Sequence record: MZ311865.1
DNA: 64,000 bases
From: Escherichia phage vB_EcoM_LNA2
Strand: one strand, 5' to 3'
Shown: piece after piece, positions 1,853 to 28,959 of the stretch
Numbering within the stretch: position 1 is the stretch's first letter
Layout: the number at the start of each line of letters is the position of its first letter
Translations under genes and position numbers: made by a program
Notes under the pieces: generated by a model
Database searches by the model: none
What the model was told of the DNA's origin: nothing
Seen by the model: the letters and a program-made list of their open reading frames with translations, nothing else

Positions 1853-4800
1853 ATGGCCGACATCAAACGTAAGTTCAGAGCCGAAGACGGTCTGGACGCC
1901 GGTGGCGACAAGATTGTTAACGTAGCATTAGCCGACCGTACAGTAGGTACTGATGGCGTAAACGTTGACTTCCTGGTACAAGAAAACACCGTTCAAGTAT
2001 ATGATTCTACGCGTGGATATAACAAAGGATTTGTTGTTCTTTATGACAACCGTTTATATCAAGCAATAAATGATATCGTGTCTCCTTCCGGGGCATTTAA
2101 CCTTTTACAATGGCGTGCAGTTCGTACCGATGCACAATGGATAACTGTAGCTTCTGGGTCTTATCAACTTTCTTCAGGTGAATCGATTTCGGTTAACACT
2201 GGTGCCGGCAATGATATGGTTTTCACGTTGCCAAATGCGCCGGTTGATGGTGACACTATTGTTTTGGCTGATATTGGTGGAAGAACCGGGGCAGTTAAAG
2301 TACAGATTAACGCGTCTGTGCAGAGTATTTTAAACTTTAGAGGCGAACAAGTTCGTACAGTTTTAATGACGCGTCCGCGTTCACAACTAGTGTTTGTGTT
2401 TAGTAATCGTTTGTGGCAGATGTATATTACCGATTATGGTAAAGAATCAATCACTGTTACACCTGCTACACCATATCAAGCGCAAGCAAACGATTTTATT
2501 GTTCTTCGTTTTACTAGTGCAGCACCAATCAACATTACACTTCCACGTAATGCTAACAATGGTGATATAATCAGCCTAGTTGATTTAGATAAATTAAACC
2601 CACTGTATCATACGATTATTAAAACATTTGATGATACAACGTCTATTGGCGAAGTCGGGACTCATATCGTCGAAGGTAGAACTTCTTCTGACGCGTTTTT
2701 TGTTTTTGATGCTGCAAATAGTTTATGGCGTATATGGGAAGGCGACCAGAAATCACGTCTTCGTATTATCCGTACAGATTCAAATATTCGCCCAAATGAA
2801 GAAGTTCTTATTTTTGGTACAAATAACGCTACAGCAGAAACTATTAACCTTACGCTTCCTACAGGAATTTTGACCGGTGACACTGTTAAAATTTCAATGA
2901 ACTACATGCGTAAAGGCCAAACAGTAAAAATTAAAGCTGCCGAAGGTGATACAATTGCTTCTTCTGTTGCATTACTTCAGTTCCCTAAACGTTCTGAATA
3001 TCCACCTGATGCTCAATGGGTCTCTGTTACTGAACTAGAATTCAATGGCACTACTTCATATGTTCCTGTATTAGAATTAGCGTATATCGAAGACACCGAT
3101 TCTGACACTCATTATTGGGTTGTGCAACAGAATGTCCCTACGGTAGAACGTGTTGATGCTGGAACTGATGCTACACGAGCTCGTTTAGGTGTTATTGCTC
3201 TTGCTACTCAAGCGCAAGCAAATGTTGATTTAGAGAATACTCCAGCTAAAGAAGTGGCTATTACTCCTGAAACTTTGGCAAATCGTACAGCAACTGAAGC
3301 TCGACGTGGTATCGCTAAAATTGCTACAACAGCACAAGTTAACCAGAATTCCACAGCATCATTTGTGGACGATACTATTGTTACGCCTAAAAAACTAAAT
3401 GAGCGTACAGCAACTGAAACTCGTCGTGGTCTTGCTGAAATTGCTACTCAGGCTGAAACCGATGCTGGTCTTGATGACACAACGATTATTACACCTAAGA
3501 AATTGCAGGCACGTCAGGGCTCTGAAACACTATCTGGTATAGTTAAATATGTATCAACTACTTCTGCTACACCTGCCGCGACTCGTGGAGCTGCAGGCAC
3601 TAATGTTTATAATAAAGACACAACCACGTTAACTATTTCTCCTAAAGCCCTTGACCAATATAAAGCAACTTATGCTCAACAAGGTGCAGTAATTTTAGCT
3701 GTTGATAGTGAAGTAATTGCTGGTCAATCACAAGCAGGTTATTCTCACGCTGTAGTAACTCCTGAAACACTACATAAGAAAACTTCTACTGATGGACGTA
3801 TTGGTTTAATTGAAATTGCTACGCAAGCAGAAACTAATGCTGGGACTGATTATACACGTGCAGTAACGCCTAAGACGTTAAATGATAGGAAAGCTACGGA
3901 AGGATTATCCGGCATAGCCGAACTTGCTACGCAAGTTGAATTTGATACTGGAACTGATGATACTCGTATCTCGACTCCACTGAAAATTAAAACTCATTTT
4001 GATTCTTCTGACCGTACCAGTGTTAATTCTGATTCCGGACTTATTGAAGAAGGAACCTTGTGGAACCATTATACTCTTGATATTTCTAAAGCAAATGAAA
4101 CACAACGTGGTACACTTCGCGTAGCGACCCAGGCAGAATCTAATGCAGGAACTTTAGATGATGTTCTTATTACTCCTAAAAAGCTTTTAGGGACTAAGTC
4201 CACTGAAACGTCTGAAGGCGTAATTAAGGTTGCTACTCAGGCTGAAACTGTAACAGGAACTTCTGCTAATACTGCTGTATCTCCTAAGAATTTAAAATGG
4301 ATTGTCCAGTCTGAACCAACATGGGCTGCTACTACGGCGATTCGTGGATTCGTTAAAACTTCATCCGGTTCTATTACATTCGTTGGTAATGATACAGTTG
4401 GTTCAACACAACCTTTAGAATCATATGAAAAAAATAGCTATGCTATATCTCCATATGAATTAAACCGTGTACTTGCTAACTATTTGCCATTGAAAGCTAA
4501 AGCAGTAGATAGTAATTTATTAGATGGTCTAGATTCATCTCAGTTCATTCGTAGGGATATTGCACAGACGGTTAATGGTTCACTAACCTTAACCCAACAA
4601 ACGAATCTGAGTGCCCCTCTTGTATCATCTAGTACTGCTACGTTTGGTGGTTCAGTTTCGGCAAATAGTACATTGACTATTTCTAACACTGGAACGACTT
4701 CTTCTCGATTTACATTTGAGAAAGGTCCTGCTTCTGGTAGTAATGCTGATTCTGCATTGTATGTTCGTGTATGGGGTAATAAGTACAGCGGCGGTTCTGA

Positions 4801-6929: not shown

Positions 6930-7595
6930 ATGGCCGATTTAAAAGCTGGTAGTACAACTGGCGGTGCCGTTATATGGCACCAAGGTAATTTCCCTTTAAT
7001 GCCAGCAGGTGATGACGTCCTGTATAAAACGTTTAAACTCTATTCAGAATACAATAAACCACAAGCGGCTGATAACGATTTTGTTTCTAAAGCTAATGGT
7101 GGTACTTTTGCGTCAAAGGTAACATTTAATGCTGGTGTTCAAGTACCATATGCTGTAAACAATACAAACCAAAGCGGTATTTATCCTGGCAATGGCGACG
7201 CAGCTACTTTTGCTACAGCAAATATTGATATTGTTTCATGGTATGGTATTGGTTTTAAATCATCACAGGGTTCAGCAGCCCGAACTGTGGTAATTAACAC
7301 ACGTAATGGTGATATTAGTACAAAAGGTGTTGTGTCGGCAGCTGGTCAAGTAAGAAGTGATGCGACTGCTCCTATAGCAGCGAATGACCTTACTAGAAAA
7401 GATTATGTTGATGGACGAATAAATATTATTACAGATAACGCAAATTCCCGTGTATTGCGTAAAGGCGATACCATGACTGGTACTTTAACAGCACCAAACT
7501 TTTTCTCACAGAATCCGGCGTCTGAGGCTAATCATGTTCCTCGTTTCGACCAGATTGTAATTAAAGATTCTGTTCAAGATTTCGGCTATTATTAA
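6930..7595 (+). CDS. 36: long tail fibre distal subunit connector gp36
   Basis: 221 aa; position and size as T4 gp36. Confidence 0.85.
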
Positions 7596-26830: not shown

Positions 26831-27355
26831 TCATTTTAGCAAAATAAAATCAACTTGTTCTGCCAATGAACGTCTGAACATTAATTGACAACTTCCGAGG
26901 ATGAAATCAGGTGCTTCATAGACCGCGATGTAGTATCCTTTAGCTTTCAAGAGTTCAACATCCACCTGGTCATCAAACCATGCATAAACCGCGTCAACAC
27001 TTTCAAATCCAAAATAGAACTCTTGAGCCCAATCTTCGCTCAATTCAAATGTGTGCTCAATTCTATAGTATCTTAAGATATTTTGTTCAAGGAGTTTGTC
27101 TTCATTTACTGTAGGACGATTAGGGACATTATAGTTGTCGCCATGATGGTAGAAGTTACCTGAGAGTATTCCATGCTTATCAAGGAACTCCCATGTTTCT
27201 TCAGAGTTGTCGGTGCCCGACCAACCGTATGGCGAACGAGGTTCTTTATTCCAAGAGGTTTCCCAAATTCTGACGGCTTTACCGTCTTCAATAGCAATTC
27301 CTGGTAATGATTCACGTTGAGTACAAAAACTACGTTCTACGCGGTAAACTAACAT
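26831..27355 (-). CDS. hypothetical early protein
   Basis: 174-aa ORF; 5' UTR carries 12-bp inverted repeat that would pair with the SD. Confidence 0.5.
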   Translation of the reverse strand: MLVYRVERSFCTQRESLPGIAIEDGKAVRIWETSWNKEPRSPYGWSGTDNSEETWEFLDKHGILSGNFYHHGDNYNVPNRPTVNEDKLLEQNILRYYRIEHTFELSEDWAQEFYFGFESVDAVYAWFDDQVDVELLKAKGYYIAVYEAPDFILGSCQLMFRRSLAEQVDFILLK

Positions 27356-27360
27356 ATTAT

Positions 27361-27410
27361 TCTCCTCTGGTTGATATGGTTATAATATCAAAACCAGAGG
27401 AGAAGTAAAC
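27361..27410 (-). promoter_or_regulatory. promoter-in-stem-loop module: 12-bp inverted repeat sequestering SD + internal early promoter
   Basis: TCTCCTCTGGTT (27361-27372) / AACCAGAGGAGA (27392-27403) perfect inverted repeat; GTTTAC 27405-27410; -10 at 27381-27386 in loop. Confidence 0.5.
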
Positions 27411-27414
27411 AACT

Positions 27415-27834
27415 TTATGCAAAAGATGCTGGACAATATTTTTTGATTTGGAACTCAGGAACTACCATGAACTGTCCAGCAAAAACAATGTTATAAAGCT
27501 TGACTCCATCTTCAACCCATTGGTCACTGATGAACCCAGCGACTTGATTCGTTGTCCACGGTGTTCCATCTGTCGCAGAGGCAATGGTGAACTTGTGGTC
27601 TTTTACAACTAAAACCGATCTGCACAGTTTCCATTTGAACGCTTTTTCTTCCGGTTCAATGAATTGGCTTTTAACGTAACCAATGTTACCATCGGCGTCA
27701 CGAACTTTAACTTCGTTACGTCCAAAAACAGGATCACTCACATAAAGAACTTCAACCAACTTCCCGGCAACTTTAGAGCGAGAAGCATCCGATACGTGTA
27801 CATAATCACCAATAGAGAGATTTGCAATATTCAT
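27415..27834 (-). CDS. paralog family member A (139 aa), unknown function
   Basis: Shares C-terminal motif GFISDQWVEDG.KLYNIVF.G.F.VV with next two ORFs. Confidence 0.55.
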   Translation of the reverse strand: MNIANLSIGDYVHVSDASRSKVAGKLVEVLYVSDPVFGRNEVKVRDADGNIGYVKSQFIEPEEKAFKWKLCRSVLVVKDHKFTIASATDGTPWTTNQVAGFISDQWVEDGVKLYNIVFAGQFMVVPEFQIKKYCPASFA

Positions 27835-27843
27835 AATAATTCC

Positions 27844-28341
27844 TTAAGCTTTACGAGGAGACACATAGCGAGTGATTTCAGATTCTTCAACAACTCGGAA
27901 GTCACCTAAGAATACAATATTGTATAGCTTTTTACCATCTTCAACCCATTGGTCGCTGATGAAGCCGCACATAGTATCAGTTTTGCTTGGATAACCGTAT
28001 TCGTCGATGTAATCAAATTCTTTATCGGTTATAAATTCAACGCCTTTGCAAAGGGCCCATTTGAACTGTGTAGTAGGCTCAACGATATCGCTTGAAGCAA
28101 AGTGTGCAGGTGCAACTTCTTCGCTTGAAGCAAATTGGACTCGTATATGTTTTTCCAGGAATTTAGGACTTACGTAAGCATACTGGGCATCTTGTCCGCC
28201 AAAACTGGGGATGATTCGAACTTTAACTTCTTTAACACGTCCCATGCCGTTAGTACGAAGCCCTGCTACTTCAACCAGACGACCTGCAGCTTTAGAACGA
28301 GAAGCAGGAGATACACGAAGGATTTCACCAATAGTAATCAT
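27844..28341 (-). CDS. paralog family member B (165 aa), unknown function
   Basis: Track ORF 27844..28404; start moved to ATG 28339-28341 (MITIGEIL...) because promoter 28372-28402 lies inside the longer ORF. Confidence 0.55.
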   Translation of the reverse strand: MITIGEILRVSPASRSKAAGRLVEVAGLRTNGMGRVKEVKVRIIPSFGGQDAQYAYVSPKFLEKHIRVQFASSEEVAPAHFASSDIVEPTTQFKWALCKGVEFITDKEFDYIDEYGYPSKTDTMCGFISDQWVEDGKKLYNIVFLGDFRVVEESEITRYVSPRKA

Positions 28342-28371
28342 ATTTTTTCTCTCTTTGTTTAAGTTGAATTC

Positions 28372-28402
28372 ATTATACTCCATCCATCCTTGGATGTAAA
28401 AC
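28372..28402 (-). promoter_or_regulatory. T4-type early promoter (TTTACA-N17-TATAAT)
   Basis: Minus strand GTTTTACatccaaggatggatggagTATAAT. Confidence 0.5.
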
Positions 28403-28403
28403 A

Positions 28404-28898
28404 TTAATTAAGAATATTAACTACTGCACTACGTGGAACAACACTAAAATCACCAGCATGAACAACGTTAATAAGTTCAACACCATCTTCAATCCACTGG
28501 TCAGTTACCCATCCACTCACTGGACCTGCGAACGGACGTCGAATTGAAACGGCTTTACACAACAAATCAGTAGGCTCAATAGGCTTAATCAGAGTACCGT
28601 ACATACAAGCGATGTCCATATCAAAGTGGAGACCATCTTTAACAGGTGCTTCTTCAATCAAGAGTTCAAAGTCGGTGCTCGGAAGGGCAGTAGTAGAAAT
28701 TGTACCGTATGAATTTTTAATTTCTAAGAATAACCAAGGGCCTTCAACTTGTTTGATGAAGTTAACAATAGTGAAACTATTACCTTGAGTGGCACCTAAA
28801 ATTTCACAAAACTTTTCATAAGCTCGCACTGAAGCACCGTACCAATTGATTTGTTTTTCGTCTTTCAGGATGTAAGTAGCCGTAGTATTGATATTCAT
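28404..28898 (-). CDS. paralog family member C (164 aa), unknown function
   Basis: C-terminal SGWVTDQWIEDGVELINVVHAGDFSVV aligns with paralogs A/B. Confidence 0.55.
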   Translation of the reverse strand: MNINTTATYILKDEKQINWYGASVRAYEKFCEILGATQGNSFTIVNFIKQVEGPWLFLEIKNSYGTISTTALPSTDFELLIEEAPVKDGLHFDMDIACMYGTLIKPIEPTDLLCKAVSIRRPFAGPVSGWVTDQWIEDGVELINVVHAGDFSVVPRSAVVNILN

Positions 28899-28929: not shown

Positions 28930-28959
28930 ATTATACTCCAACCATCCTTGGTTGTAAAC
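28930..28959 (-). promoter_or_regulatory. T4-type early promoter (GTTTAC-N18-TATAAT)
   Basis: Minus strand GTTTACaaccaaggatggttggagTATAAT; spacer near-identical to promoter 28372-28402. Confidence 0.55.

Follow-up and report, generated by a model that had tools for sequence, protein, structure and literature searches.

A tandem array of three early genes with a common C-terminal domain at the motB locus of a Mosigvirus

MotB of bacteriophage T4 is an abundant protein that is produced from ~1 min after infection and binds both host DNA and T4-modified (glucosyl-hydroxymethylcytosine) DNA tightly and without sequence specificity (Patterson-West et al. 2021, PMC7827196). Its co-purification with H-NS and StpA requires DNA, and it alters the H-NS footprint; 75 host genes are upregulated, ~1/3 of which belong to the H-NS regulon, burst size is doubled, and over-expression is toxic (PMC7827196). 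According to papers that cite Son et al. (2021), MotB is a nucleoid-associated protein with DNA-compacting activity that relieves silencing by H-NS. MotB homologues have been sorted into categories with a common C-terminal domain and differing N-terminal domains; T4 MotB.1 is in one such category ('Category 2'), and one gene is probably a duplicate of the other (PMC7827196). RB69 was reported to carry two motB genes, one motB.1 and one 29-aa peptide, and the C-terminal domain of MotB was assigned an OB-fold (cold-shock type) from HHpred (PMC7827196). The N-terminal domain of MotB.1 was placed in an LSm-like fold family with GoF and Frd.2, the family domain being a bent five-stranded antiparallel barrel (Kim et al. 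2025, PMC12152347). Deletion and amber mutants of T4 motB.1 had no laboratory phenotype and no effect on RNA (PMC12152347).

We analyzed a 64-kb stretch of phage DNA (hereafter the window). Its DNA is 92-99% identical to the Mosigvirus genomes UGJNEcP1, HX01, ST0 and NBG1, the top match is a Mosigvirus at 98.8%, and the window is from a Mosigvirus, an RB69-like relative of T4. A sequence-only reading of the same DNA had noted three consecutive ORFs of 139, 165 and 164 aa and taken them for a tandem array of paralogous early genes with a constant C-terminal domain. The three ORFs are present at 27415..27834 (ORF139), 27844..28341 (ORF165) and 28404..28898 (ORF164), each length excluding the stop codon, and BLASTP, Pfam and promoter evidence bears out the array. 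Genes in this region all lie on the minus strand, in the order dda, dexA, ORF164, ORF165, ORF139, a 174-aa ORF, cef and goF. The array thus lies between dexA and cef, the position of the MotB family in the early region of the Tevenvirinae, and the gene order recurs in HX01, NBG1 and RB69. In RB69 the order motB.1, motB, 'MotB-like', motB.2 is that of the window, and T4 has motB, motB.1 and motB.2 at the equivalent locus. The annotation 'MotB-like transcriptional regulator' is used in relatives, as is 'modifier of transcription', the latter for the counterparts of ORF165. Homology and position mark the array as the motB locus of a T4-type phage of the RB69-like kind (Mosigvirus), and based on Pfam, PHROG and synteny with T4 and RB69 we assigned ORF165 as MotB, ORF139 as the additional MotB copy that RB69-like phages carry and ORF164 as MotB.1.

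The 174-aa ORF (26831-27355) is labelled 'MotB' or 'transcriptional regulator' in some records. Its phrog_1106 match and alignment identify it as a homolog of T4 MotB.2, and we excluded it from the family because it is unrelated to the C-terminal domain that the three ORFs share (hhalign probability of 0.2). In passing, we noticed that motB.2 has moved and that there is a 33-nt duplication.

Two of the three genes are directly preceded by early-type promoters of the form TTTACA-17-TATAAT, each with 11/12 matches: P1 (28930..28958, minus strand) upstream of ORF164 and P2 (28372..28400, minus strand) upstream of ORF165. Their hexamers agree with the T4/PST-type consensus TTTACW-N17-TAYWAT. The sequence-only reading had pointed to two near-identical promoters with a CCAAGGATGG spacer, and this exact string occurs at P1 and P2 only in the 64 kb. 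The spacer palindrome reads CAACCA-AGGA-TGGTTG in P1 and CATCCA-AGGA-TGGATG in P2, so that a compensatory pair distinguishes the two. P1 is kept in HX01, NBG1 and RB69, and its hairpin has a predicted energy of -6.9 kcal/mol. PeSL shuffling cassettes are defined by a terminator-like stem-loop upstream (PMC4122927); no such stem-loop was seen upstream of P1 or P2, and we do not claim them as PeSL cassettes.

ORF165 matches the Pfam family PF17613 (motB) with an E-value of 6.6e-37 over model positions 2-157 of 162, matches phrog_1671 ('MotB-like transcriptional regulator') at 7.5e-63 and is 47% identical to T4 MotB. It consists of a KOW-like N-terminal domain (28156-28341, minus strand) and a C-terminal domain (27847-28068, minus strand) joined by a variable linker. 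The mechanically called ORF is 186 aa long, from an ATG at 28404, and the second ATG gives 165 aa. We chose the shorter form because the 186-aa extension crosses the promoter and because homologs, including T4 MotB, begin at MITIGE/MIINIGE.

ORF139 has the same two-domain arrangement, with a KOW-like N-terminal domain (27655-27834, minus strand), a short linker and a C-terminal domain (27418-27639, minus strand). It matches PF17613 (4.8e-23) and positions 2-166 of phrog_1671, and corresponds to RB69p010, annotated 'MotB-like'. Its start lies 10 nt past the ORF165 stop, it lacks a separate promoter, and it is probably co-transcribed with ORF165. The orthologs of ORF139 form a tight group of 139-aa proteins with 82-97% identity, and intact 139-aa versions with no truncation are present in >25 clusters.

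ORF164 is built differently. It matches phrog_2333 over its full length (residues 1-164, 5.3e-81), aligns end to end with MotB.1 proteins of 143-169 aa and is 54% identical to intact T4 MotB.1, which places it in the MotB.1 subfamily; its PF17613 match covers residues 88-159 only. The N-terminal domain (residues 1-86; 28641..28898, minus strand) is of the MotB.1 type, for which an LSm-like beta-barrel was published. Next comes a linker motif, FDMDIACMYGTLIKP (residues 92-106; 28581..28625, minus strand), which was recognized in alignments and lies in a low-confidence linker of the structure model. The motif has the form [FIV]D.D[IVL]...Y......P and recurs in many family members that have a PTDLLCK-type C-terminal domain. 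The shared C-terminal domain of ORF164 (residues 109-164; 28407..28574, minus strand) is, by alignment, of this short PTDLLCK subtype and has five strands in the model.

Pairwise comparison of the three proteins confirmed the common C-terminal block that had been proposed. A three-way alignment has 25 invariant columns, mostly within G.[IV][ST]DQW[IV]EDG..L.N[IV]V..G.F.VV. In composition-adjusted BLASTP, ORF139 and ORF165 matched over their full length (E = 4e-31, 42% identity), whereas ORF164 matched ORF139 over the C-terminal 29 aa only (E = 2e-11, 62% identity) and ORF165 over the C-terminal 36 aa only (E = 4e-10). All three proteins scored above the gathering threshold of PF17613 (25 bits), with 127.3 bits for ORF165, 82.2 for ORF139 and 36.8 for ORF164. 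A tblastn search of the whole 64-kb window with the C-terminal domains retrieved exactly three copies, those in ORF164, ORF165 and ORF139, and no further or remnant copy (nothing else below E = 0.03). Judged by these alignments, the similarity of the three C-termini goes far beyond chance and is not compositional. The accompanying view that the N-terminal regions had diverged held only in part. ORF165 and ORF139 both have the two-domain MotB architecture, and their N-terminal regions are homologous (47% identity); ORF164 lacks this architecture and has only the C-terminal domain in common with them, its N-terminal domain being a swapped one that is unrelated in sequence to theirs.

AlphaFold2 models of ORF139 and ORF164 each contain two small barrels. 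The ORF139 model (pLDDT 89.7, pTM 0.79) has beta domains at approximately residues 11-55 and 73-133, and in the ORF164 model (pLDDT 79.5) the domains span residues 8-83 and 116-161, and residues 87-103 form a disordered linker. In both C-terminal domains, strands beta3 and beta4 make a tight hairpin and the last strand is preceded by a short 3-10 turn, and the whole-model structure matches are tandem Tudor and KOW domains. The models favor two SH3/Tudor-like barrels; because of the hairpin and 3-10 turn pattern and the whole-model matches, they suggest an SH3/Tudor-like barrel for the C-terminal domain, contrary to the published OB-fold.

In the T4 reference (NC_000866.4 / AF158101.6), motB.1 contains one extra G near position 7300, ATTGGAAGATGG versus ATTGAAGATGG; the annotated protein is 119 aa long and ends in DQWIGRWR*, and the remainder of the domain (EDGVELLNVVHAGEYSVVPRSAVVAILN*) is in the next frame. 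A tblastn search of GenBank phages found an intact 143-aa MotB.1 in 13 other T4, T4T, RB55 and RB59 records, and in exact-pattern scans of IMG/VR neither the T4 frameshift site nor the corresponding intact sequence had a match. In the RB69 reference, two single-T insertions create the '29-aa peptide', and the entries are 132 aa and 29 aa. Kim et al. (2025, PMC12152347) give MotB.1 as 13.8 kDa and use NC_000866.4 coordinates, so the plasmid-expressed MotB.1 of that study may be without most of the conserved domain; the protein in the plasmid assays seems to have been the 119-aa truncated form. Because the T4 and RB69 reference motB.1 entries are frameshifted, work based on the annotation studies a protein missing most of its conserved domain. 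This by-product is of more practical use than the array itself.

A 36-aa C-terminal query found 1510 copies of the shared domain in 774 phage records. Each genome of a Mosigvirus-like phage has three copies, most Tequatrovirus and Dhakavirus genomes have two, and T4-like phages of Klebsiella and Edwardsiella have one, so that homologs across related phages are not single-copy everywhere. A search of 1.84 billion representatives with a profile of the C-terminal domain gave 43 matches, ~27 of which are genuine small phage-type proteins. Large proteins (Ig, subtilase, tail-tip) matched over short hairpin-like stretches alone, and we discounted these matches as spurious. The most distant relatives combine a KOW domain with the C-terminal domain, and this architecture is thus probably ancestral. 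The MotB.1-type C-terminal domain is carried by proteins with a single LSm-like domain (143-169 aa), by a 177-183-aa class, by a 244-252-aa class with seemingly two LSm-like domains, and by KOW hybrids (for example, P0057). Metagenomes additionally contain chimeras of a MotB N-terminal domain with an ORF139-type C-terminal domain (P0156, P0151, P0218), the product expected of recombination between tandem copies. Within Mosigvirus the array genes are 87-99% identical, compared with 99-100% for dda and dexA. Identity to T4 is 47% for MotB, 54% for MotB.1 and 39% for MotB.2, compared with 79% for dda, 67% for dexA, 68% for cef and 76% for goF. Measured by these identities, the family evolves faster than its neighbor genes, as the sequence-only reading had supposed.

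Taken together, we consider it likely that the array is best read as a motB locus in which the assigned identities and architecture, functions like those of T4 MotB, and an origin by duplication and domain shuffling all hold. The three products of the locus would be small early proteins of two domains each, with a common C-terminal beta-barrel of ~55-75 aa. By analogy, ORF165 would act as T4 MotB does. ORF139 would be a second MotB copy, specific to the lineage and with a shorter linker, and may be a sub-functionalized duplicate with the same DNA-coating activity in a related or partly redundant role. ORF164, as MotB.1, would be an LSm-like N-terminal domain fused to the common C-terminal domain; its C-terminal barrel may make the same contact as that of MotB (nucleic acid or self-association), and its differing N-terminal barrel could redirect the protein to a different partner, perhaps RNA. 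The modest identity of MotB between this phage and T4 (47%) and the lack of a phenotype in T4 motB.1 mutants (PMC12152347) count against this reading. The array may have arisen by tandem duplication, giving ORF165 and ORF139, and by domain shuffling, giving ORF164, and recombination between copies may still be remodeling it.

Arrays of this type had been likened to host-interaction or anti-defense genes. The first half of this comparison fits T4 MotB, a DNA-binding protein that changes repression by H-NS (PMC7827196). For the second half, neither our analysis nor the MotB-family literature (PMC7827196, PMC12152347) contained a link to a specific anti-phage defense system, and 'anti-defense' is not supported unless H-NS silencing counts as defense. 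In its strict form, this explanation would have each paralog inhibit a different immune system, with the duplication and N-terminal swaps as the outcome of an arms race. Early expression from a non-essential, plastic region, evolution faster than that of the neighbors, the variation from 1 to 3 copies and the chimeras would all be expected, as would a protein that is toxic to the host and of conditional benefit to the phage (PMC7827196), and H-NS silencing is sometimes regarded as a defense (PMC7827196). However, the documented activity of T4 MotB is non-specific DNA binding and H-NS remodeling, a contact between MotB and H-NS without DNA could not be demonstrated (PMC7827196), and the ortholog groups are well conserved (see ORF139 above) and not hypervariable. 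We regard a strict anti-defense array as unlikely.

It is quite improbable, in our estimate, that the small barrels, above all those of ORF164, bind RNA or the transcription/translation machinery and not DNA/H-NS, in which case the array would tune mRNA stability or elongation. The idea draws on the original naming of motB as a 'modifier of transcription' and on the grouping of the MotB.1 N-terminal domain with GoF, whose D25Y mutant stabilizes an mRNA (PMC12152347). Our own profile comparison of the ORF164 N-terminal domain and the MotB.1 family with the GoF of the window was not significant (probability 0.1), however, and small-barrel folds alone do not indicate a ligand. The T4 transcriptome was unchanged by motB knockdown (PMC7827196), and MotB.1 was without effect in a reporter assay (PMC12152347), where the protein tested was possibly truncated. 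Finally, the proposal that the shared motif is due to chance or composition, or that ORF139 is a decaying, functionless redundant duplicate, could appeal to the shortness of the stretch in common with ORF164 (~30-36 aa) and to the missing ORF139 promoter, but the chance reading is refuted by the composition-adjusted BLASTP E-values (1e-10 to 1e-31) and the scores of three of three ORFs above a curated Pfam threshold, and with the intact ORF139 orthologs and a confident ORF139 fold model the proposal as a whole is hardly credible.

Within the motB-locus reading, a further and doubtful extension is that the C-terminal barrel is a docking or self-association module combined with swappable N-termini (KOW, or one or two LSm-like domains) and a DxDxxxxY contact, through which the paralogs would co-assemble into a mixed nucleoprotein coat. 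If true, DNA compaction and H-NS displacement would be coupled to a second target (for instance RNA, or a host factor to which the linker motif binds), and use of the frameshift-truncated 119-aa form would account in part for the negative results with T4 MotB.1.

The finding is real, ordinary for the Mosigvirus group and already in the literature. The family, the shared C-terminal domain and the arrangement of two motB genes plus one motB.1 in RB69 were published in 2021, so the array is conceptually not new, and against PMC7827196 and PMC12152347 our observation is a rediscovery of a described family. T4-type phages make proteins of the MotB family early and in abundance, and these proteins remodel the host nucleoid and silencing by H-NS. 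The knowledge that Mosigviruses have three members is of help for annotation and for the design of knock-outs, because single deletions may be masked by paralogs.

Several known systems resemble the locus to different degrees. T4 MotB (NP_049626, PF17613, PHROG 1671) aligns with ORF165 over its full length and has the same succession of KOW-like N-terminal domain, linker and C-terminal domain; its gene likewise lies between dexA and cef with an early promoter directly upstream. ORF139 has this architecture in common with T4 MotB as well. Unlike in T4, the MotB gene is present twice in the window, and ORF139 is without ~25 linker residues. For MotB.1 of T4 and RB69 (PHROG 2333), the likeness is the full-length phrog_2333 match of ORF164. 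Compared with the 143-aa MotB.1 of Tequatrovirus, ORF164 has an extra linker insert of ~20 aa that carries the DxDxxxxY motif, and it is intact at 164 aa, in contrast to the frameshifted reference entries of T4 (119 aa) and RB69 (132 + 29 aa). The 53BP1 tandem Tudor, Spt5 KOW6-KOW7 and NusG KOW domains are similar to the models at 10-18% identity and a TM of ~0.4, with a different domain orientation; judged from the models, this likeness is a fold resemblance only and does not support methyl-lysine or RNA-polymerase binding or common ancestry. T7 gp5.5 and T4 Arn are, like MotB, early phage proteins that relieve H-NS-mediated silencing. They have no sequence or fold kinship with MotB and bind H-NS directly, whereas MotB associates with H-NS only in the presence of DNA.

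The motB.1 gene of the window (ORF164, encoding MotB.1) has an intact frame, unlike that of the T4 reference genome NC_000866.4, which carries an extra G (ATTGGAAGATGG; L003, the T4 reference sequence, 2200-2360, minus strand; counterpart at 28395-28560 of the window). Because of this extra nucleotide, the annotated T4 reference MotB.1 is cut to 119 aa and ends within the conserved DQWIEDG motif. The frame is intact in 13 other records (T4, T4T, RB55, RB59), where the T4 product is 143 aa. The 13.8 kDa quoted for MotB.1 in published work (PMC12152347) is that of the truncated form. The RB69 reference (NC_004928) contains two single-T insertions in motB.1 when compared with the window (L004, the RB69 sequence, 3860-4060, minus strand), and as a result the gene is broken into a 132-aa ORF and a 29-aa "hypothetical protein", RB69p012. 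This is the "Category 3" peptide of a 2021 paper (PMC7827196), and the split probably stems from a mutation in the strain or an error in sequencing rather than from a real mini-gene.

The linker of ORF164 is disordered except for a short conserved motif at residues 92-106 (28581-28625, minus strand; pattern [FIV]D.D[IVL]...Y......P), which reads FDMDIACMYGTLIKP and lies shortly before the PTDLLCK-type C-terminal domain. The motif was also found in distant family members, whichever of the two N-terminal types they carry, and in the 177-183-aa class it is located at the extreme N-terminus; a role as a linear interaction motif is possible. In ORF165 (MotB), the linker contains a 33-nt tandem duplication (28088-28134, minus strand), in which TTTGCTTCAAGCGA recurs 33 nt apart and which encodes FASSEEVAPAH / FASSDIVEPTT. 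Because linker lengths differ among relatives, with MotB proteins of 151, 154, 165 and 172-175 aa, the MotB linker is a hotspot of length variation. Three proteins from metagenome/Logan contigs (P0156, P0151 and P0218) have a MotB-type N-terminal domain and linker, of RB69 type or T4 type, fused to an ORF139-type C-terminal domain. Such chimeras are as expected from unequal recombination between the tandem paralogues, which would leave a two-gene array in place of the three-gene one.

In the spacer of each of the two promoters, on the minus strand, inverted repeats of 6 bp flank a 4-nt loop: CAACCA-AGGA-TGGTTG in the first (within 28930-28958) and CATCCA-AGGA-TGGATG in the second (within 28372-28400), with a compensatory A/T swap between the two. 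The relatives HX01 and NBG1 keep both repeats, and RB69 shares the first; the second promoter has TTGTAC as its -35 in the two relatives checked. Candidate readings are a putative dimer binding site or a DNA or RNA hairpin. A perfect 13-bp inverted repeat, TTCTCCTCTGGTT...AACCAGAGGAGAA (27362-27406, minus strand), is predicted to fold into a hairpin at -23.9 kcal/mol. It spans both the -10 region belonging to a weaker site that resembles a promoter (27409-27382, minus strand) and the Shine-Dalgarno sequence that precedes the gene for the MotB.2 homologue (ORF 27355-26831). This hairpin could terminate the motB transcript, control translation, or do both.

The MotB.2 homologue itself (26831-27355, minus strand; phrog_1106) is 39% identical to T4 MotB.2. 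It is annotated as "MotB" or "transcriptional regulator" in some database records, for which sequence comparison gives no support. In the window and RB69 the gene is downstream of the motB genes and adjoins cef, whereas in T4 it is upstream of them and adjoins dexA, a shift that is a local gene-order rearrangement inside a plastic region.
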